From assembly GCA_016839785.1 (NCBI GenBank), contig JAEOTQ010000074.1, positions 1 to 14,423 of the forward strand: 14,423 nucleotides of DNA, read 5' to 3'. The notes under the pieces are model-generated. The model was given only the letters and a program-made list of their open reading frames with translations. It was not told the DNA's origin and did no database searches. The translations under genes and the position numbers were made by a program. Shown piece by piece: positions 5,029 through 14,423 of this stretch. The DNA is from Candidatus Hodarchaeota archaeon. GTDB lineage: Archaea > Asgardarchaeota > Heimdallarchaeia > Hodarchaeales > Hodarchaeaceae. Positions within the stretch are counted from its first letter, which is position 1. Each line of letters begins with the position of its first letter.

Positions 5029-7224
5029 TCATTCATAGAGGAAGAGTTTAATCTCATCTACAAGCTTATTTAGAGCCCTTTTTTCCTCTCTGGGGAGTAA
5101 GAGATCTTGAACATGGGGTTCAATGACATCATCGATACTACGTGCTTCAGCGACTTCATATTCATATTTTAACTCCATTGGATCTATTATCAGTTCGAAA
5201 AACTTTGCTACTTTCCCTGGTCGAGTTGCTCTTCCTACTCTTTGTATTTGCTCTCGTCGATTTTTTGTACCAGAAACAATGATGATTGTATCAGCAGGAG
5301 CGTCAAATCCTTCATTTAACATCTTAACAAGAATTAGGGTGTTAATTTCGTTTTGTCGAAATTTATCAAGGAGAATATTGAATTCTTTATCATTCAGGAC
5401 TGTTTCACCCGTTAGTAAAGTACTCTCTATCTTTCGATCTTTCAAAAACTTGTGGATAGCTTTTGCATGATTGATTCGACTTGTGAAAACAAGAGTTTGT
5501 GATGTCAACGGTGATTCAAGCAGTTTGTATACAGCGAACATCTTGTAACGTGCTTCTCGTGAAATTTTTCCATAAGAAGACTTCCCCTTTTGGTTAATTA
5601 TGGTTTTTTCCTCTGATGTTAAGGGAATATGTATTCTTTCAGAGTATATTGGAGCAATGAACCCCTCACGAGCTAATAAACCATAATTAATCTTGTGAAT
5701 GATTGGACCCATACACGCTACTACTAAACTTGAGTGTAAAGATTTTTCAATCGTAGCACTAAGCGCCATACGACGAGGGATCTCTAAATCTACCGCAATA
5801 TGACGAAACGTCTCTGCTTGGATATGATGTGACTCATCTGCGATTAATAGTCCGAATTTATCCGAGAAAAATCCAATCGTATCTTTAACTAGCAATTTGT
5901 CCCGAGATACTTTATCCAGTTCTTTCTTTTCTAACGCATGAAAATCCTGTAAGTATTGGGCAAGTAATTGAAATGTCGAAATAACTATCTGATACTGACG
6001 GAAAGCTTTTTTCTGTCCAGTAAAAATTCCGATATCAGAGGGTTTCACCCCAATGAACTTTCCAATTTGATCTATCCATTGATCAACTAAAGCGAGATTA
6101 GGAACAAGAATCAAAGTCCGTTGTTGGATCTGTCGTATTGCATCTATCCCAATAATGGTTTTTCCTGCCCCTGTGGGTAATTGTATTGTACCAAATTCTT
6201 GATTTTCAAACCATTTCTCAATACCTGTTTGTTGGTAAGACCGTAATTCATAATTGTGTAGCATTTCAGTCTTCCAGATTTTCTTACTTGGTGTAGGAGA
6301 AAATGGAGTGTATTTCAAATCAAATAAAGCTCTAGCTTGCGTTTCCGCCAGACTTTTTTCCACCATACGCCAGAAATGATTGGCTCGAAAAGCAGCCCAA
6401 TAAGCTACTTCTATCTCTCGCTCATCTACCTGAGTAATACAATGGAGATAGTCGGAATTAGGATCATCTTCTGATCGTATTGCCATATAACGTGAAAAAA
6501 TATCGAATAGTGTATGGAACCATGTATTAAATGCCTTATTCCACTTTATCCTTAATTTATCATCAACCGATTCGACAACGATTGAATAATCCTGATGGCC
6601 ACTCTCAGAAAGTGAATCTAGTTTCTCCTTTGTTCCTGGACTATATTTAATTGTAACTCCTGTTTTTTGTAAGAGTTTAATATCTTCATGGACAAGATGT
6701 GGGAATTGGAGAATGAATTTCGTTGGTCTATGAGTTCGTTTGTGTTCCCAATAGCTATTATGTTTCCGCCAATTTCGCTCCCAGATTCGAAATTGTTCAC
6801 CTATCCAAGGATAATAGAAGAATTTCCGATCATAATCCTCTGGTTCCTCTTCTTTCTTTAAATATTCAAAATAATCCTCTACATTTAAACTTCGTGAGCG
6901 TTCTTTCTTATAGTGAGAGCGTCGTATTGGGATCCATGCATTAATTTGCGTAAAAGGGTACCAGGGGAAATCAATTAGAAAACTCAAGTCCTCTTGAATT
7001 GTTATTTGGAACTCACTTTTTTCAGCAGTAATGAAGTTAATCCATGCCTCCTCGGTAATTGAAGCACCTTTCATACGTGGACTCTGCTTTCCCCGTAATC
7101 CAAGATTAGGCGAAGAACAGAGATGAGTTCGAATTTTATGGCGACATAATGGAGCAGAGCATTTACTACATCGGTAAATTTTTGCACCTGCTTCCGCACA
7201 TTCATTACATATTTCTAAGCTAAT
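5029..7224 (-). CDS. XPB/Rad25-like SF2 (DExH) helicase with long N-terminal region and probable N-terminal zinc finger
   Basis: LRSYQ Q-motif, LPTGAGKT, DESHH, SAT and QRVGRATR. The first ATG is at 7074, but the frame stays open to 7233 and encodes a Cys/His finger. A probable ATT start lies at 7224 or 7227 after a GAGGG SD; the start position is uncertain. Confidence 0.85.
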   Translation of the reverse strand: MSLEICNECAEAGAKIYRCSKCSAPLCRHKIRTHLCSSPNLGLRGKQSPRMKGASITEEAWINFITAEKSEFQITIQEDLSFLIDFPWYPFTQINAWIPIRRSHYKKERSRSLNVEDYFEYLKKEEEPEDYDRKFFYYPWIGEQFRIWERNWRKHNSYWEHKRTHRPTKFILQFPHLVHEDIKLLQKTGVTIKYSPGTKEKLDSLSESGHQDYSIVVESVDDKLRIKWNKAFNTWFHTLFDIFSRYMAIRSEDDPNSDYLHCITQVDEREIEVAYWAAFRANHFWRMVEKSLAETQARALFDLKYTPFSPTPSKKIWKTEMLHNYELRSYQQTGIEKWFENQEFGTIQLPTGAGKTIIGIDAIRQIQQRTLILVPNLALVDQWIDQIGKFIGVKPSDIGIFTGQKKAFRQYQIVISTFQLLAQYLQDFHALEKKELDKVSRDKLLVKDTIGFFSDKFGLLIADESHHIQAETFRHIAVDLEIPRRMALSATIEKSLHSSLVVACMGPIIHKINYGLLAREGFIAPIYSERIHIPLTSEEKTIINQKGKSSYGKISREARYKMFAVYKLLESPLTSQTLVFTSRINHAKAIHKFLKDRKIESTLLTGETVLNDKEFNILLDKFRQNEINTLILVKMLNEGFDAPADTIIIVSGTKNRREQIQRVGRATRPGKVAKFFELIIDPMELKYEYEVAEARSIDDVIEPHVQDLLLPREEKRALNKLVDEIKLFLYE

Positions 7225-7447: not shown

Positions 7448-9664
7448 TTATTTTTTCGGAAAATTAAGAGTGAACTTCATCCCGTGTCCTTTTCCCTCAC
7501 TATACGCGGTTATTGATCCACCATGTGAGTTCATAATTTCTCTAGATAAATAAAGACCAATCCCTGTTCCTTGTATAGAATATTCTGTCTCAATAGTTAC
7601 GAATTGATCAAAAATCCTCTCCAGATCTTTAGGATCTATCCCTGCTCCATTATCGATAATATCAACTTCGATACTCGTAATAGAATTTCTAATTTCGATT
7701 TTTATTTTCCTAGTTTCTTTCGAACTATTTTTAATCGCATTATCAAGCACATTATCAAAAACTTGTTGGATACGATCGCTATCAAGGGAATATTTTACTT
7801 GAGAAACTTCATCAAAATTAACAAATTTGAAATCAATCTGTTCGTCCAATAAATTCTGATACGGAGTTAATATTTTGATCAAGAACTCCTTAAAATCAAT
7901 TGATTGGAGATTTATTTGAAATAGTCCTCTTTCGAGTTGTGTAATTGCTTGACTATCTGCTATCAATCTCTCTAATCGATTGAGATTTTTTGTGATGATT
8001 GAAAAAACATCTTCTCTCTGTTGATTATTCATAGAGTCTAATTTCTTTTGTAGGAACTCAGTATATCCGAAAAGAACTGTTAAAGGAGTTCTTAATTCGT
8101 GATTAACCATTCTAATGAAATTATCTCTCCTTTTTTGTAATTCAACTCTAATCTCTTCCGCAACTTTTCTCTCTTCGACGTTTCTGAATATTCCTATATG
8201 GTATTTCTTATCTTCTAATGTGATGGGAGAAACGCTAATATCTGCATGGAATAGGGAGCCATTTTTTTTTAGAAGGGGAATTTCAGAAGCAAAAGTTGAA
8301 GTTTGGACATTAATTGCTTTCGTATCGTCATTAAAACCTTTATACGTCTTATTAGGTTGAATTTCAGCAAGGGAAAGGGTTCGGATCTCCTGTTGTGAAT
8401 ATCCGAACATATCACAAAAGGGCTGATTCGCTAAGAAGATTTCTCCATCCTCTGGGTTGGCAAGAATAATTCCATCCGTCACATTTTCAAAAATAGTCTT
8501 AAATCTTGACTCAGAATCTCTTACATCCTTTTCAGAGTTCTTTATGTCAGTAATATCATGAACTGAAACAGTCGCTTTGGCAGTATTATCCTCTTCAAAA
8601 ATCATTTTTGATCGTAATAGTACCCAAAGCTTCTTCCCTGATTTTGTAACAACTTGATACTCAATAGTGTTCGGTATTTCCTCTCTGGCCATGATTTTTG
8701 CTGCTCGACCCAACCATACTTCCTTACTTTCGTCTGTTAACATGTCATATAAATTTAGAGCAAGAGCTTCTTCATGTGAAACTTCGAACAATTCTAGTAA
8801 TAAGTCATTTGCATAAACAACACGTACCTCTCCAGTCGAAAAATTGAATATTGACTCATATATTCCTGTGGGTGCTTGTTTAACAAGTTGGCGATAGCGT
8901 TGTTCGCTTTCTCGAAGAGCATTCTCAATCGCTTTAATATCGGAAATGTCAAGAATGACACCCCGTAATCCAACAGGTTTCTGATCTCGGATAATAGGAC
9001 TTGAATAAATTAATACAGGGAAAGTTGTTCTTTTTCTATGCAACGCTGTATACTCATGATCTTCGAATAATTCTCCTTGCATCATTTTATTAATATTTTT
9101 ACGAATTCGATTTAGATCTTCGGGGATAAACAACTCAGAGACGTTCAACCCTCTCTTTAACTCCTCTTGTGTATAACCAAAGGTTTCCAGTCCCTTCGGA
9201 TTGGCATAAGTTATTTTTCCAGTGAAATCGATCTCGAATACAGTCTGGGGTAAAAGTTCTGCTAATTCCTTAACGTTCTGTTCACTGTGTCTTAATTGCG
9301 TGTCAAGTGTTTGTGTATGAATAAATTGTCGATAAAATCCATATATTCCTAAAATTGCACTTAATAGGAAGAATACCATGTCTATTTCATCAATAGAATC
9401 GGTAAAACCATATCTTACCAAATTGGGGTCAAAAGTTTGTGCAAAATCTTGAATCACATCAAAAAATAAAGGTATCATCAACAAAAGCATAGCTGTAAAT
9501 GTCCATGGGCCCGCTCCCCGATAGAATGCATCATTTTTTTTCATACTGAGAAAAATAATAACTGCCAGGGCAATAACTATGAGGAGAGTAGCCATTTCCA
9601 GTAAAAATTCAAAGTAATCAAAGAAATCAACGGCGAAGAAACGTCTCAGATTTATTTGAATCAT
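7448..9664 (-). CDS. Membrane-anchored PAS-domain sensor histidine kinase
   Basis: N-terminal hydrophobic helices, three PAS/PAC repeats (ending DIS, DIT, NVE), H-box HELRTPL, N-box NVLDNAIK, G1 DNGAGI and G2 GTGIGL. GAGGG SD upstream. Confidence 0.93.
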   Translation of the reverse strand: MIQINLRRFFAVDFFDYFEFLLEMATLLIVIALAVIIFLSMKKNDAFYRGAGPWTFTAMLLLMIPLFFDVIQDFAQTFDPNLVRYGFTDSIDEIDMVFFLLSAILGIYGFYRQFIHTQTLDTQLRHSEQNVKELAELLPQTVFEIDFTGKITYANPKGLETFGYTQEELKRGLNVSELFIPEDLNRIRKNINKMMQGELFEDHEYTALHRKRTTFPVLIYSSPIIRDQKPVGLRGVILDISDIKAIENALRESEQRYRQLVKQAPTGIYESIFNFSTGEVRVVYANDLLLELFEVSHEEALALNLYDMLTDESKEVWLGRAAKIMAREEIPNTIEYQVVTKSGKKLWVLLRSKMIFEEDNTAKATVSVHDITDIKNSEKDVRDSESRFKTIFENVTDGIILANPEDGEIFLANQPFCDMFGYSQQEIRTLSLAEIQPNKTYKGFNDDTKAINVQTSTFASEIPLLKKNGSLFHADISVSPITLEDKKYHIGIFRNVEERKVAEEIRVELQKRRDNFIRMVNHELRTPLTVLFGYTEFLQKKLDSMNNQQREDVFSIITKNLNRLERLIADSQAITQLERGLFQINLQSIDFKEFLIKILTPYQNLLDEQIDFKFVNFDEVSQVKYSLDSDRIQQVFDNVLDNAIKNSSKETRKIKIEIRNSITSIEVDIIDNGAGIDPKDLERIFDQFVTIETEYSIQGTGIGLYLSREIMNSHGGSITAYSEGKGHGMKFTLNFPKK

Positions 9665-9809: not shown

Positions 9810-10778
9810 TTAGTCAGTTTGGAGACCTGCACCACAAGCTTCGCAAAAACGATCGTCTTTCAAAACCATTTCTCCACAGTGTGAACAATATCGGACGAAA
9901 TCATCAGTTTGAACATCTGGAACAGTGATAAATTGATCTAATGAAGATTGCGCGTCTTCACCAGCTCGTTTTCTAACATTGGTCATGTTTATTGTTTCTA
10001 ACTCTTTAAGCGGTTGTTTTAACAAGATTGCCAGCTGACGAGCATTAGCTGGAGCGGATCCTGCAGGATGATTATTAAAATAAGTGTATATTTCCTTAGT
10101 CTGGTCTTTTAGGATCTCGATCTTCTCTTTCCAGACAAGTAACTCTTTCCGAGAGTAAAAATAGCGATACCACAATTTTAATCCATGACCATGAAGGCGC
10201 ACATACGAAAAATCAGCCGTGACGGGTGTGATAGGAGGTAAAAGAGGTTCATCAACAATGCAATAAGCTACATTGAATTTTGAGAGTAAATCAACGGTCT
10301 GGTTTAGGTGCTTACACCAACTCATCTCCCGAAATTCTACTGCCAGTTTTAACTCTGAGGGCCAATGTTTGAGAAATACTGCAAGCGATCGACGATTCTG
10401 GTCCGAGAATTTTGGTGGTAATTGTAGTAATGCAGGGCCTAACTTCCTACGTAAACCACTCGACATGGTATCTAGAAATCGTTCAAGATCGGTATGAAAA
10501 TCGATGAGTTTCTTTTCATGAGTAATAGCCTTTGGAATCTTAAATGCAAACAAGAAGTCATTTGGGACGTGTTTTTCCCATCTCTGAACTACTCCCAGTC
10601 GGGGAAAGTGATAAAAACTAGTGTTAATCTCCACAGTGGAAAAAACTTCGCTGTACCATGCAAGACGCTGTTGTTCTTTTAGCATAGAGGGGTAGAAAGG
10701 GATTTTTGTTTTTTCGTTACGTGCCTGCCAGTCGGAATATCCAAATCCCGATGTTCCAATCAACACCTTAGCAGTCAA
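9810..10778 (-). CDS. DUF72 (YecE-like) protein with C-terminal PIP-like motif and zinc ribbon
   Basis: IGTSGFGYSDW, TVEINTSFY, LLQLPPKF, AVEFR, YVRLHG and YFNN...A..NA motifs. Tail has QSSLDQFI and CSHC-x10-CEAC. TTG start with GGAG upstream. Confidence 0.92.
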   Translation of the reverse strand: MTAKVLIGTSGFGYSDWQARNEKTKIPFYPSMLKEQQRLAWYSEVFSTVEINTSFYHFPRLGVVQRWEKHVPNDFLFAFKIPKAITHEKKLIDFHTDLERFLDTMSSGLRRKLGPALLQLPPKFSDQNRRSLAVFLKHWPSELKLAVEFREMSWCKHLNQTVDLLSKFNVAYCIVDEPLLPPITPVTADFSYVRLHGHGLKLWYRYFYSRKELLVWKEKIEILKDQTKEIYTYFNNHPAGSAPANARQLAILLKQPLKELETINMTNVRKRAGEDAQSSLDQFITVPDVQTDDFVRYCSHCGEMVLKDDRFCEACGAGLQTD

Positions 10779-10821
10779 TCGTTCAGAACTCCATTGCGTC
10801 GTCCTTCATCTTAGAACCTAA

Positions 10822-11025
10822 TTAATTCATTTTGAGTCGATACTCTTCCTGCTGGAGATTGAAAATCGATCCTGAAATCGTGAAAGCGAGGCCAAGTAAC
10901 CCAAATAGTATGATCCTTCCGAGATCTGTGTAAGTTAGCTCATATCCAGCAGTGATACCCATGAAGGCCAAGAAAAAAAACAAACCTCCAAGTATCCAGC
11001 AAACTAAATCTTTGCTATTTACCAT
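10822..11025 (-). CDS. Small two-helix membrane protein of unknown function
   Basis: 67 aa with two hydrophobic segments, a strong GGAGGT SD about 10 nt upstream, and no overlap with neighbours. Co-oriented with DUF72. Confidence 0.7.
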   Translation of the reverse strand: MVNSKDLVCWILGGLFFFLAFMGITAGYELTYTDLGRIILFGLLGLAFTISGSIFNLQQEEYRLKMN

Positions 11026-11042
11026 TCTCTGATTTACCTCCA

Positions 11043-11059
11043 GTATCTATCGTAGATAC
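11043..11059. promoter_or_regulatory. Inverted repeat GTATCTA-TCG-TAGATAC
   Basis: Perfect 7-bp arms immediately upstream of the SD of the small membrane gene. Confidence 0.4.
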
Positions 11060-11182
11060 CTGATTAAAAATATTTAGATGACGGACTGAATTCTAGAGAA
11101 TGGATTGCGATATTCATCTTTACCTTTGATTCTAAATATGAAACTACTATCCTGAAAACGTAAAAGCAAGACACCAGCGTAC

Positions 11183-11230
11183 TTTATCGGAAATTGTAAT
11201 TTATCAGAAACACTCATTTTCTTCATTTTC
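11183..11230. repeat. Short direct repeats upstream of the radA-like/polB2 operon
   Basis: TTTATCGGAAA (11183-11193) and TTTATCAGAAA (11200-11210); TCATTTTC twice (11214-11221, 11223-11230). Confidence 0.45.
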
Positions 11231-11292
11231 GCTGATGTCTGTCTCTGTATCAGAGTAATTAGTTAGGATCAAGATGAGCTAGCTGAAGACAA

Positions 11293-12090
11293 ATGGGTAC
11301 CGATGCCAGTCCATGGAACTCAGCTTGGGAATTACAACATGAAAAACGGTATAGGTCGGGACTTTTAGCTCTTGATGCATTGATTCCAGAAGGAATACTG
11401 CCAGGCAGTATGATCCTGCTACAGGGTGACCTTGACCGAAAATTATTACGACATGTAGTGACCCAACTCTCAATAGGTCTTTTAACTACTAATGATCCTG
11501 CGGAACTGGCATTTGTAGATGGAGCTAACCTTTTTCCTTACTATGAGATAGCGACTGAAGCACGAAGACAGGAGTATGATCCGTTAGTCATTTTGGATCG
11601 TATTCAGTTGTCACGAGCTTTCAATTTCCATCAAATGAGTGAAATACTAACTAAAAGACTTCCCAAACTCCTTGAAGTGAAAAATCACCTGAAAATAATA
11701 TTTGTTCCCCAGATTTCATCACAATACCTTTCTACGGAAGCTTTAGAGTATCTAGAATATGCAAAGTTATCCGTAGCAGAAGGGGCACTATCTGAATTGA
11801 CTCAAGCAGTTGGTACACTGAAAAGTCTTGCGTTGCAGCATAACCTAGTGGTTATCATGACGGCCGCGAGTGCCACAGGATCAAAAACCAGAGGCTTGGG
11901 AGGAACTTATCTTACTCATTCAGCTTCCTCGGTTATAAGAATGGCCACTTCGGCACACAGCACAGCCAAGGAATATGATATTCACTTTGTGTTACAAAAA
12001 GACCCTTCACGTCCAGTCATGCAGCTTACTCATTCACATCGACGAAAGAAACCTGTCAATGATCAAATGTTAATAAATCGCTATTGGTGA
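11293..12090 (+). CDS. Inactivated RadA/RecA-fold protein (PolB2-associated) with C-terminal PIP box
   Basis: RSGLLALDALI.EGI, FVDG, ILDRIQLSRAFN and GGTYLTHSAS match the Rad51/RadA fold. Walker A is degenerate (QGDLDRKL) and the Walker B Asp is missing (IIFVPQIS). Ends QMLINRYW. Confidence 0.85.
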   Translation: MGTDASPWNSAWELQHEKRYRSGLLALDALIPEGILPGSMILLQGDLDRKLLRHVVTQLSIGLLTTNDPAELAFVDGANLFPYYEIATEARRQEYDPLVILDRIQLSRAFNFHQMSEILTKRLPKLLEVKNHLKIIFVPQISSQYLSTEALEYLEYAKLSVAEGALSELTQAVGTLKSLALQHNLVVIMTAASATGSKTRGLGGTYLTHSASSVIRMATSAHSTAKEYDIHFVLQKDPSRPVMQLTHSHRRKKPVNDQMLINRYW

Positions 12091-12094
12091 TCCT

Positions 12095-12370
12095 ATGGGA
12101 CGAACATTACCTTCCTATCGAATGGTGCTAGAACATGAACGAGCACTTTGGATAAAACATTTTGCCAAACGTCTGCGAGAACCGTACCGCACAAGCTTTG
12201 ACTATCTTTGGGAGAAGGCTTTTCAGCTTGCTGATGCTTCCTCCGCAAATACTAGGCCAGTAGCCTTAGATAACATTCTTATGAGCATGGTAGTGGCCCA
12301 ACAGGCGGAAATCCAACGTTTGCAGAAAGATATTGCTGTACTACAACAACAAGTGAAGGGTACTAGCTAG
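12095..12370 (+). CDS. Small alpha-helical PolB2-associated protein (arCOG07300-like)
   Basis: MGRTLPSYR N-terminus, coiled-coil-like C-terminus, and position between the radA-like gene and polB2. The GGTGA SD overlaps the upstream stop. Family assignment is from recall. Confidence 0.78.
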   Translation: MGRTLPSYRMVLEHERALWIKHFAKRLREPYRTSFDYLWEKAFQLADASSANTRPVALDNILMSMVVAQQAEIQRLQKDIAVLQQQVKGTS

Positions 12371-12383
12371 CTGCCTGATTATT

Positions 12384-14423
12384 ATGGTTTCTCTATGTGC
12401 TTGGTTGCATGATGTAGCTGCGACTGATTGGGGAGTAAATACATACTGGATTACGCCAACAAGAGGGATTAAAGCTTTTTATCCACTGACGGTAGAATTT
12501 TTCTTGGCTAAAACCGATCAAGAAACCCAAAATCGGGTTTTAAGTCATCCCGAAGTAGAAGCAGTCGAAGAAGTATCCAAGTATGTTTCGATCCACGACT
12601 GGCAAGCAAGTCCTGTCCTCCGTGTTCGAGTCAATCCAGCTAAGATACGGACAACCTTTGAAGATCTTAGAAACCAGTGGGGAGAGTACCTCTATAATGC
12701 CGATCTCAGTATTTATCAACAGTTTTGTTTTCAAACCGGCCTGTTTCCGTATGTCTATGCGAAAATCAATGTCAATAACGAGAAATTACATGACGACTGG
12801 GAACTCCTCGAGCACTATTTACAGGCTGACTACCAGACAGTTCCTTTCCGTACCCTCTGGATGCAGCCATTCTTTGCAGAACAAAATTTCTTGCGCGGAC
12901 CAATAAGAGAAATACATATGCGGCATTCACTTGTCAATCAGGAAGAAGAACCGGTAGTATTTGCTGAAGATACGGAAACAGAGACATTACGGGAAAGTAT
13001 GATGTATCTAAACAAAGTCGATCCTGATATCCTTTTCACCTCAGGGGGAGATACTTTTTTTCCAATACTTGCCCAGCGTGCAACTGACCAGGGGATGGGG
13101 TATCTCCATCCAGGTAGAGGTAAGCGTCGTCTATACAGCTATGTAAGAAAGCAAAATCGACCACGAGGTCACAGCTATATGTCCTACGGGAGAGTTTTCT
13201 ATTCCCAGCATGGAAGTTATCTGGATGGTGGCCGGCATCATTATGACGTTGGTAATTCGTTTATGTGGAAGGAAGGGAGTATTGATGGAATTCATGAACT
13301 TGTTCGTTTAGGTTGTTCTGATCCACAACGGATTGCTCGTGCTACAATTGGAACTGCATTAACTGCTGTACAGATGAGAACCGCTTACAGTCGAAATATT
13401 TTGATCCCAGGACGAAAAGCCGATAGTGAAGATTTCCGCGCTGCATCTACAATGATGAGTGATGTAGGTGGATTAGTATTTTCTCCGCAGGTTGGATTCC
13501 ACCAGAATCTTGTTGAGCTGGATTTCTTATCCATGTATCCTTCAATTATGGTAAACCGTAATGTATCTCCCGATACAATTAATTGTAGCTGTTGTACTGG
13601 TATACAACGGTATCCTGTTCCTGAAACAGATCATTATATCTGCACTCAGCGTCCGGGTCTTGTTAGTTTAGCGTTGAAAAATATCTTAGATCGACGGGCG
13701 CACTTCAAAAGCAAACGAAAGGAACATCAACGGTATAATCGTAAACAAAAAGTGCTTAAGTGGTTACTTGTGTGCTCATTTGGTTACCAAGGCTATCGTA
13801 ACGCCCGATTCGGACGAATTGAGGCTCATGAGGCTATATCCGCGTATGGACGGGAAGCCTTGACCCGTACCAATCAAATTGCGATAGAGTATGGACTGCA
13901 AGTAGTAGCCGGCATTGTGGATTCGATCTGGCTGAAGAATTCTGATGATACCCCTATCGAACAATCAGTGATTGACGAGATATGTCAACGAATAGAAGCG
14001 GAAGTAAAGCTCCCACTGGAACATGCAGCTAATTACCATTGGATTGTATTTCTTCCGCGCCGTCATGAACCCACAATTGGTGTCCTTAACAGATATTATG
14101 GTCTGAAAACCGATGATTCCTATAAAATTCGTGGGATTGAGATTCGACAATCTAACAGTCCCTTGTTTGTTAAAAAGCTGCAACGACAGCTCTTAAAGAT
14201 TCTGTCCACTGCACAAACCCACGAAGAATTTATGGAATGTGCACAAAAGGCCAAGAGAGTGATGCGAAAATATCTAGCTGATTTGAAAGCAGGAACTATT
14301 CCATTAAGTGATCTTCTAGTGACCATTCGTCCTTCACGCGGTCCAGATGAGTATGTTAGTAATACTCGACAGGCCATTGCCGCTCGTCAATTGGTCGCGG
14401 CAGGGGTGAAAGTGGAAGCAGGA
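12384..14423 (+). CDS. polB2: Family B DNA polymerase, archaeal B2 group (Dpo2-like), partial at 3' end
   Basis: Manual translation from ATG 12384 (MVSLCAWLHDV...) stays in one frame through motif A DFLSMYPSIM (13521-13550), motif B KQKVLKWLLVCSFGYQGY (about 13743-13796) and motif C GIVDS (13911-13925), and appears open to the window end. Exonuclease motifs are degenerate. Absent from the ORF track because there is no stop. Confidence 0.93.
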   Translation, partial: MVSLCAWLHDVAATDWGVNTYWITPTRGIKAFYPLTVEFFLAKTDQETQNRVLSHPEVEAVEEVSKYVSIHDWQASPVLRVRVNPAKIRTTFEDLRNQWGEYLYNADLSIYQQFCFQTGLFPYVYAKINVNNEKLHDDWELLEHYLQADYQTVPFRTLWMQPFFAEQNFLRGPIREIHMRHSLVNQEEEPVVFAEDTETETLRESMMYLNKVDPDILFTSGGDTFFPILAQRATDQGMGYLHPGRGKRRLYSYVRKQNRPRGHSYMSYGRVFYSQHGSYLDGGRHHYDVGNSFMWKEGSIDGIHELVRLGCSDPQRIARATIGTALTAVQMRTAYSRNILIPGRKADSEDFRAASTMMSDVGGLVFSPQVGFHQNLVELDFLSMYPSIMVNRNVSPDTINCSCCTGIQRYPVPETDHYICTQRPGLVSLALKNILDRRAHFKSKRKEHQRYNRKQKVLKWLLVCSFGYQGYRNARFGRIEAHEAISAYGREALTRTNQIAIEYGLQVVAGIVDSIWLKNSDDTPIEQSVIDEICQRIEAEVKLPLEHAANYHWIVFLPRRHEPTIGVLNRYYGLKTDDSYKIRGIEIRQSNSPLFVKKLQRQLLKILSTAQTHEEFMECAQKAKRVMRKYLADLKAGTIPLSDLLVTIRPSRGPDEYVSNTRQAIAARQLVAAGVKVEAG

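Follow-up and report, generated by a model that had tools for sequence, protein, structure and literature searches.

The stretch of DNA analysed here (14,423 nucleotides in full, hereafter the window) is the entire contig C25 of a Hodarchaeales genome assembly of 4.04 Mb, with a completeness of 84.5%. On its plus strand, the window carries three adjacent and co-oriented genes, encoding iRadA, a putative inactive relative of RadA (11293–12090, 265 residues), PPB2, a small protein of arCOG07300 (12095–12370, 91 residues), and the DNA polymerase PolB2 (12384–14423, 680 residues, the gene stopping at the contig end). The iRadA and PPB2 genes are separated by 4 nt, and PPB2 and PolB2 by 13 nt. A 30-bp element, CTCATTTTCTTCATTTTCGCTGATGTCTGT, lies at 11213–11242 on the plus strand, 70 nt before the iRadA ATG, and constitutes a candidate regulatory site common to the radA-1 gene. 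Head to head with the operon, on the minus strand, stand a gene for a DUF72 protein with a zinc ribbon (9810–10778, 322 residues) and a 67-residue open reading frame (ORF). Taken as a whole, the locus is probably a known mutasome operon that works on the sliding clamp PCNA and shares a regulon with radA-1, DUF72 being a separate PCNA client.

The iRadA-PPB2-PolB2 operon

The order iRadA-PPB2-PolB2 is kept in all 13 loci of the genus that hold the three genes. An operon of PolB2, arCOG07300, and an inactive RadA is described by Makarova et al. 2014 (PMC4104785), and a PolB2:iRadA:PPB2(3) heteropentamer, in which PPB2 is proposed to act as a trimer, was modelled for other species by Timinskas et al. 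2025 (PMC11791011). The window agrees with this published mutasome in its three gene families and in their order. In both, the polymerase has a decayed exonuclease and carries IVD at the DxD site, iRadA is without N-domain and Walker motifs, PPB2 has the MGRT arm, a PCNA motif ends iRadA, and a DUF72 gene lies nearby. From these features, the three-gene core is identified as the published PolB2 mutasome operon. The main text of PMC11791011 does not mention an Asgard or Heimdall example of it.

The match of iRadA to Rad51/RadA is weak (Pfam E-value 3.2e-5, NCBIfam scores far under the cut-offs). When aligned with Pyrococcus RadA, its Walker B segment reads IFVPQ instead of LIVDS, which replaces the Asp by a Pro, and the position assigned by eye to Walker A reads GDLDRKLL, without GK[TS]. 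The helix-hairpin-helix N-terminal domain is missing from iRadA, in contrast to the real RadA of the genome. As predicted from these residues, iRadA is an ATPase-dead RadA core. Its C-terminus, QMLINRYW (12064–12087, checked by translation), fits the pattern Qxx[ILM]xx[FYW][FYWLIM] of PCNA-interacting protein (PIP) motifs, and is both terminal and kept in orthologues. Of the 14 orthologues in the genus (window included), 12 have the C-terminal pattern [LS]L(N/T)x[YF]W, 10 of which also keep the Gln in register, and the remaining two (L040, L041) show a degenerate end, LTRFL. PCNA motifs at iRadA C-termini were reported to be commoner than in PolB2 and to occur ‘rarely in both’ (PMC11791011, section 3.3.3). 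The Asgard loci sampled differ on this point, since most of them carry PIP-like ends on both iRadA and PolB2 (32 out of 40 related loci with both termini visible, scored with a relaxed pattern). A single PCNA gene was found in the genome (G000:C135, L052 1486–2349). Its product has a long acidic C-terminal tail (...DDYDDDEYDDEYDDEED), which is kept within the genus and missing from the PCNAs of the more distant families sampled.

PPB2 is helical, with an N-terminal arm, MGRTLPSYR, that includes Arg3 and Arg9, and with a coiled-coil-like C-terminus; Pfam returned weak coiled-coil matches only. The MGRT start is found in 34 of the 48 PPB2 ORFs detected in Asgard loci, and section 3.3.1 of PMC11791011 reports such an arm, with both arginines, for PPB2.

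PolB2 matches the NF004416 profile with an E-value of 8.7e-102, and of 400 genomes searched in the phylum, 259 contain PolB2 matches with E-values of at most 1e-45. Its exonuclease domain aligns only weakly, over just 53 residues, with that of a solved family B polymerase (5vu5), and a gap of this alignment faces an Asp of the 5vu5 segment NGDNFDF, presumably that of Exo II. The motif A Asp is retained, and IVD replaces the DTD of 5vu5 in motif C. Intein-free relatives measure 743–805 residues, and the window copy is about 69 residues short of its closest relative (749 residues). The PolB2 relatives of the genus end in TLExF[LW] or QTIEEYL, which are PIP-like. In five of them (L043, G008:C2, 4247–8092; G015; G006; G009; G013), an insertion of about 530 residues is found at PolB2 residue 466/467, which starts with Cys, ends with ...SHN followed by Cys, and bears an intein signature. 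In the window copy, which is without insertion, the site corresponds to the segment reading KWLLVCSFGYQGY, presumably motif B. A genus-type operon, with its genus-type upstream element and a PolB2 66% identical, also occurs on a 4226-bp contig assigned to another Asgard family (L080, G101:C80), which suggests that this contig is misbinned or was recently transferred. A PolB2 loop mimicking the RadA oligomerisation motif was modelled in other species (PMC11791011).

In the proposed mechanism, PolB2 would be a proofreading-less family B translesion polymerase acting with the helical PPB2 and the ATPase-dead iRadA. The complex would most likely be recruited to the single PCNA through the iRadA PIP and the PIP-like tail of PolB2, because iRadA ends in a PIP and the PolB2 proteins of the genus in a PIP-like tail. 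The ImuA-ImuB-DnaE2 system combines, in a comparable manner, an error-prone polymerase, a RecA-family accessory protein, and a tether to the clamp through an accessory subunit. Nevertheless, the likeness would be one of analogy. The proteins that define that system, DnaE2 and ImuB, are missing here, the polymerase belongs to family B instead of C or Y (with no homology to ImuA-ImuB-DnaE2 or Pol V), iRadA is derived from RadA and not from ImuA, and PPB2 has no counterpart. A comparison of the PolB2 mutasome with Pol V (UmuD'2C-RecA) is made in PMC11791011.

A preliminary description of the locus had proposed a tightly spaced operon, and the 4-nt and 13-nt gaps and the ORFs are as it described. 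The ATPase-dead RadA paralogue that it listed is borne out by the Walker B change from Asp to Pro and by the missing GK[TS] at the by-eye Walker A, its 91-residue helical protein can now be named as an MGRT-type PPB2, and its exonuclease-degenerate PolB2 agrees with the 53-residue weak match and the gap opposite the NGDNFDF Asp. The small membrane gene and the DUF72 gene said to lie back to back with the operon were both found on the minus strand, divergent from iRadA. Its statement that the three-gene core was already known matches PMC4104785 and PMC11791011. The PIP motifs that it attributed to iRadA and DUF72, QMLINRYW and QSSLDQFI, were verified by translation; because they are kept in orthologues, these motifs are more than chance.

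The 30-bp element upstream of iRadA and radA-1

The element accompanies the operon throughout the genus (14 of 14 operons). In each of the 13 relatives examined, its distance from the iRadA ATG is 69–73 nt, in loci whose proteins are only about 50% identical. For genome-wide searches, a position weight matrix (PWM) was built from the genus blocks and used to scan the whole genome, a reversed-genome control reaching a maximal score of 19.5. The window's own site scores 35.9, and a site located between radA-1 and an orc1/cdc6 gene (C150) scores 26.8. Two near-identical copies on C206 and C1 score 25.2 and 24.0, and the remaining sites of the genome are weaker, with lower scores.

The radA-1 site is conserved as well, being present 232–308 nt upstream of the gene in 17 of 18 genus loci (260–263 nt in 13 of them), oriented away from radA-1, and with no conserved ORF following it near this gene. 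For the second RadA paralogue, the element was found upstream in 1 of 12 loci. Across 368 kb of genus loci, it occurs upstream of iRadA wherever this region is included, and the PWM finds none upstream of DUF72 or of the neighbouring helicase gene. Outside the genus, 754 kb from other genera and phyla yielded one hit of note and one near threshold (15.2). In the clade of the window, the single element lies between the divergent genes at 435 nt from the DUF72 start, and an effect on DUF72 is possible in this clade, because the two genes share this spacer.

The 30-bp element probably places the operon and radA-1 in a common regulon, which may respond to DNA damage. Damage induction of the operon is something that we infer; the element common to radA-1 is the best lead on it. 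The element holds two ATTTTC hexamers, which conform to ANTTTC, the Orc1-2 damage-response element of Sulfolobales according to Sun et al. 2018 (PMC6061795). The two share the ANTTTC hexamers, a position near the start codon, and occurrence at a recombination gene. They differ in that the element of the window is genus-specific at the PWM level, and that its match to the 20-bp Sulfolobales consensus does not rise above background.

Several other PWM hits were set aside. Those on C129 and C182 fall inside ORFs, and those on C206 and C1 were discarded as near-identical copies. These copies (G000:C206:1029 and C1:3942; ...TTCGTCATTTTCACCGCTCTCTCT) probably belong to the end of a mobile element, the one on C1 adjoining a gene with a zinc ribbon that is TnpB-like by eye. 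A hit upstream of orc1/cdc6-B (C98) is kept in just 1 of 10 loci. In one relative (L046, G003:C85), a second copy of the element (7455–7484, score 36.3) precedes PPB2, the operon being split there by about 300 nt after iRadA.

The surroundings of radA-1 show further regularities. Among 20 genus loci (G000:C150 35343–38491; L247–L306), 8 have an orc1/cdc6 gene head to head with radA-1, and the second RadA paralogue sits beside a second orc1/cdc6 paralogue in several genomes. Further conserved boxes, such as GGATTTCGAATAGGAA, are found in the radA-1 upstream region, and may be origin-type boxes.

The DUF72 protein and its clamp-type motif

DUF72 is assigned to PF01904 with an E-value of 9.7e-67 (225.6 bits vs. 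a cut-off of 25.3). It consists of a TIM barrel (residues 1–256), a linker, and a C-terminal CxxC...CxxC zinc ribbon (residues 297–319, at about 9822–9890), which is a DNA-binding-type zinc module. The barrel is that of the solved DUF72/YecE proteins (PF01904; 1VPQ, 1VPY, 1ZTV), to which the window protein adds the PIP-like linker and the zinc ribbon. In an AlphaFold2 model of high overall confidence (pLDDT 91), the linker between barrel and zinc ribbon is of low confidence (pLDDT 58–67). The motif QSSLDQFI occupies residues 277–284, inside this linker (9927–9950, minus strand, translation checked). The form [QR]xSLxx[FY]h is found in all 30 homologues of the zinc-ribbon type (Hodarchaeales-type), with an invariant Leu280.

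Similar motifs are common in the tails of archaeal DUF72 proteins. Among 175 unique tails, which are mutually related and thus do not give independent counts, a strict PIP pattern is found in 49, whereas 200 shuffles gave 0.98 on average and never more than 4. A relaxed pattern is found in 133, compared with an average of 21.7 and at most 33 in the shuffles. Many of the short archaeal forms end in a canonical PIP, for example, QKKLDSFF or QVGLTTYF. Forms of about 390 residues carry an added long C-terminal domain resembling, by eye, a SWIM zinc finger. In these other archaeal members, the motif stands either at the C-terminus or before this domain. A second DUF72 paralogue of the same genome (G000:C201, L054 1408–2241, minus strand, 277 residues), encoded away from polB2, ends in QMTLQEFFS. 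As judged from these tails, the PIP-like motif is a general feature of archaeal DUF72.

Docking was performed with PCNA residues 1–255 and DUF72 residues 255–322, each supplied as an alignment, together with three controls. The PCNA-DUF72 pair reached an ipSAE score of 0.76 (0.74, 0.76, and 0.78 in separate runs), against 0.02 for the best of the three controls, with at least 55% of the contacts common to the runs and a partner pLDDT of at least 56. In calibration, 58 of 80 solved complexes and 2 of 110 mismatched pairs attained the mark set for this tool. In the model, DUF72 residues 276–285 contact PCNA residues 43, 46–50, 127–128, 207, 210, 232–233, 249, and 251–255, which can be read as the classical PIP pocket of PCNA, under the interdomain connecting loop. 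DUF72 would, on these grounds, be expected to bind PCNA, and so would iRadA from its C-terminal motif.

The preliminary description had suggested that the wiring of PCNA and DUF72 may be new. The PCNA motif of iRadA and the enrichment of DUF72 near polB2 are in fact in print. What stands is the PIP of DUF72 itself, as none of the papers listed in the literature searches ties DUF72, COG1801, YecE, or TM1631 to a sliding clamp. The clamp tag of DUF72 is real and conserved, and was not found in print.

The fold gives a broader view of what DUF72 may do. Its barrel superimposes on solved DUF72 proteins with a Z-score of 28.4 (1vpq, TM1631; root mean square deviation 1.9 over 239 residues) and 27.9 (1vpy). 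The next fold matches are xylose-isomerase-like barrels with tied scores, namely MbnB (14.5), endonuclease IV (13.8), the apurinic/apyrimidinic endonuclease of African swine fever virus (13.5), sugar epimerases (13–14), and UVDE (12.2). A Foldseek search against the PDB had neither endonuclease IV nor UVDE among the top matches listed; in a wider structure search, both were present, tied with the sugar epimerases. By its modelled fold, DUF72 is a TIM-barrel enzyme of the superfamily of xylose-isomerase-like proteins, to which endonuclease IV and UVDE also belong, and it may plausibly be a nuclease. In Konc et al. 2013 (PMC3828134), TM1631 was predicted to be endonuclease IV-like on the basis of its binding site, and the possibility of a DUF72 nuclease is mentioned in PMC11791011.

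The family is widespread, the control genomes that contain DUF72 including those of E. coli, Sulfolobus acidocaldarius, and Methanosarcina acetivorans. Seven out of eight bacterial plasmid-borne DUF72 proteins end at the barrel, and the one from Priestia has the tail KQLDFFNEF. Several contigs with bacterial labels (L131, L153, L167, L182, and G402; Acidiferrales, Krumholzibacteriaceae, Desulfaltia, Dormiibacterota) carry long zinc-finger-type DUF72 genes of archaeal appearance. One of them (L182) is near-identical to archaea-labelled loci, and the phylum around one such contig is made of 0.8–2.4 Mb genomes with the same DUF72 forms. The bacterial labels of these contigs likely result from mislabelling or misbinning. 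The phylum around the Dormiibacterota-labelled contig was dropped as a bacterial DUF72 test, on account of its small genomes and of zinc-finger-type DUF72 forms identical in type to those of the archaeal loci.

Linkage of DUF72 to the operon and interpretation of the locus

DUF72 is upstream of iRadA and divergent from it, at a distance of 0.3–1.5 kb in the window and in the three relatives closest to it. The gap increases to 2.7, 3.2, 4.7, 5.3, 7.3, 8.4, 9.6, and 9.7 kb in eight other genomes of the genus. Overall, DUF72 and the helicase are less than 10 kb from iRadA and divergent to it in 12 of the 13 genus genomes that have both on one contig; DUF72 and iRadA are on separate contigs in one genus genome, and four contigs were too short for a call. 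Beyond the Asgard archaea, a DUF72-centred scan of 80 loci recovered six in which DUF72 stands tightly head to head with iRadA-PPB2-PolB2, under Bathyarchaeia/Bathyarchaeota or Gagatemarchaeum labels, as well as a seventh, weak case with DUF72 and iRadA, labelled Nitrosopumilales. These non-Asgard loci carry other DUF72 architectures, and their recurrent arrangement favours some functional tie between DUF72 and the mutasome. It also agrees with the statement that DUF72 is ‘enriched to some degree’ near polB2 (Timinskas et al. 2025, PMC11791011, section 3.1). The DUF72 linkage, for which the preliminary description had advocated a survey across archaea, is kept loosely within the genus and in the 6–7 non-Asgard loci, but this does not extend to the other Asgard genera, where it is seen in 1 of 40 loci. 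The linkage of DUF72 to the operon is real but loose.

In about 25 loci (L140, L150, L176, L185, L194, and about 20 others, under Bathyarchaeia, Nitrososphaeria, and other labels), DUF72 is flanked, usually just upstream, by a divergent DUF72 paralogue of about 315 residues, for which three of the four proteins scanned have a weak DUF2795-like tail. Where polB2 adjoins, this paralogue is the gene facing iRadA.

The gene most constantly found beside DUF72 encodes an XPB-like superfamily 2 (SF2) helicase (5029–7074, minus strand, 681 residues, ResIII/Helicase_C), which adjoins it in every genus locus where both are visible. Its match to the XPB profile NF045503 (E-value 2.1e-51) has a score of 175.1 for a cut-off of 610, which makes it XPB-like but not an XPB equivalog, and its N-terminal 270 residues match no profile. 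The helicase orthologues share a conserved C-terminal end, DxIK[LI]xF[YL], which was ruled out as a PIP by its spacing. XPB and Bax1 form an archaeal helicase-nuclease pair, and here too an XPB-related SF2 helicase gene lies beside a putative nuclease gene. In contrast to that pair, the neighbour is DUF72 and not Bax1, the helicase falls under the XPB cut-off, and the pairing was seen only in the genus.

A PAS histidine kinase gene (7448–9664, minus strand, Pfam match) separates helicase and DUF72 only in the clade of the window, meaning the window itself and the three genomes nearest to it, and is probably unrelated to the system. The 67-residue ORF (10822–11025, minus strand) has two hydrophobic segments and gave no family match in profile searches against Pfam and NCBIfam. 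Homologues are found in two of the three closest relatives, one of which has two copies, and none was detected in the third (L032). This membrane ORF is probably variable and outside the system.

In the interpretation that is favoured here, DUF72, paired with the helicase, would most likely work on DNA at PCNA as a client in its own right rather than as a subunit of the mutasome, and might supply PolB2 with substrates or clean them up. The operon and radA-1 would probably belong to one regulon, possibly a DNA-damage one. Several observations weigh against this interpretation, which is wholly computational. Regarding the clamp motif, the Gln of the DUF72 motif is replaced by Arg in 5 of 30 aligned homologues (7 of 33 listed), and the motif could instead have a structural role in the linker. 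The docking pass shows likeness rather than binding, since PIP-PCNA complexes have been solved and the model may have memorised them. The fold cannot separate nucleases from sugar epimerases, with Z-scores tied at 12–14.5. On the polymerase side, the missing C-terminus of PolB2 was not found elsewhere in the assembly, itself 84.5% complete. Concerning the linkage, DUF72 is 734 kb from iRadA in one genus genome, and the genes between the two in relatives are unrelated and none is for repair (CheC/CheD, an Arf-type GTPase, GH38, an acyltransferase, TrmB). In about 30 other Asgard genera, DUF72 is within about 9 kb of polB2 in 1 of 40 loci, some of them on short contigs. Finally, the likeness of the 30-bp element to the Sulfolobales damage-response element was not counted as evidence, since it matches the 20-bp consensus at 14–16 of 20 positions, and at least 15 matches are reached in 12% of random 130-nt windows.

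A bolder form of this interpretation would make DUF72 a PCNA-tethered, lesion- or structure-specific endonuclease, which, together with the XPB-like helicase, hands nicked or gapped damaged DNA to the PolB2 complex on the same PCNA ring (three clients for three sites), the operon and radA-1 being co-switched via the 30-bp element by an Orc1/Cdc6-type regulator, as in Sulfolobales. This detailed scheme is unlikely, and the nuclease activity and the hand-over from DUF72 to PolB2 are steps that we infer; if true, Asgard archaea would have a damage regulon in which excision and bypass form one pathway.

The preliminary description went further and counted DUF72 among the members of the complex, as a partner that processes lesions. 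In a fuller version of this view, DUF72, iRadA, and PolB2 would fill the three sites of one PCNA ring, so that incision is coupled to error-prone synthesis under damage induction. Three proteins of the neighbourhood do carry PIP-like motifs for one PCNA gene, the model places the DUF72 tail in the pocket of PCNA, the DUF72 enrichment is reported in PMC11791011, and the head-to-head arrangement with iRadA recurs in Hodarchaeales and in 6–7 non-Asgard loci with differing DUF72 architectures. Nevertheless, the gap is variable (0.3–9.7 kb) and filled with unrelated genes, DUF72 is close in a single one of the 40 loci of other Asgard genera, and the PIP is general in archaeal DUF72, the unlinked paralogue included. 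In addition, the iRadA element is missing upstream of DUF72 and of the helicase, and it is the helicase, and not the operon, that is the constant partner of DUF72. On the strength of the variable gap, the general PIP, and the missing upstream element, the membership of DUF72 in the complex was not upheld, and this role is unlikely.

Somewhat less likely still is that the adjacency is mere inherited synteny, DUF72 being a metabolic TIM barrel (sugar isomerase/epimerase-like), and the ‘PIP’ a linker helix with another role. Common descent can explain the linkage within the genus, the scores of the sugar epimerase folds equal those of the nucleases, and 7 of the 8 plasmid-borne bacterial proteins are tailless. 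In the archaeal DUF72 tails, the strong enrichment of clamp-type motifs concerns a single position, often the extreme C-terminus as in known archaeal PCNA clients, which argues against a purely metabolic role. The same holds for the placement of the motif before either a zinc ribbon or a domain that is SWIM-like by eye, depending on the lineage, for the adjacency to the polB2 operon recurring in a second phylum, and for one Bacillota homologue ending in the beta-clamp-like QLDFF. That PolB2, iRadA, and PPB2 act in replication initiation or origin regulation, with the element as an Orc1/Cdc6 origin-type box, is very improbable: such a role is discussed by Makarova et al. 2014 (PMC4104785), and the element-bearing region upstream of radA-1 borders orc1/cdc6 in 8 of 20 loci and holds more conserved boxes, but PolB2 is needed for targeted mutagenesis in S. 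islandicus (PMC11791011), and the clamp-docking design of the operon is typical for polymerases at primer ends.

With this operon, a system already in print gains an Asgard member. The clamp tag and the shared element are computational leads, the first of which offers a testable handle on the function of the widespread DUF72 family, and points to DNA work at PCNA and to a part in DNA repair. Hodarchaeales are discussed as a lineage close to eukaryotes, and the element common to radA-1 and the PolB2 operon would offer a first entry point into the regulation of their damage response.

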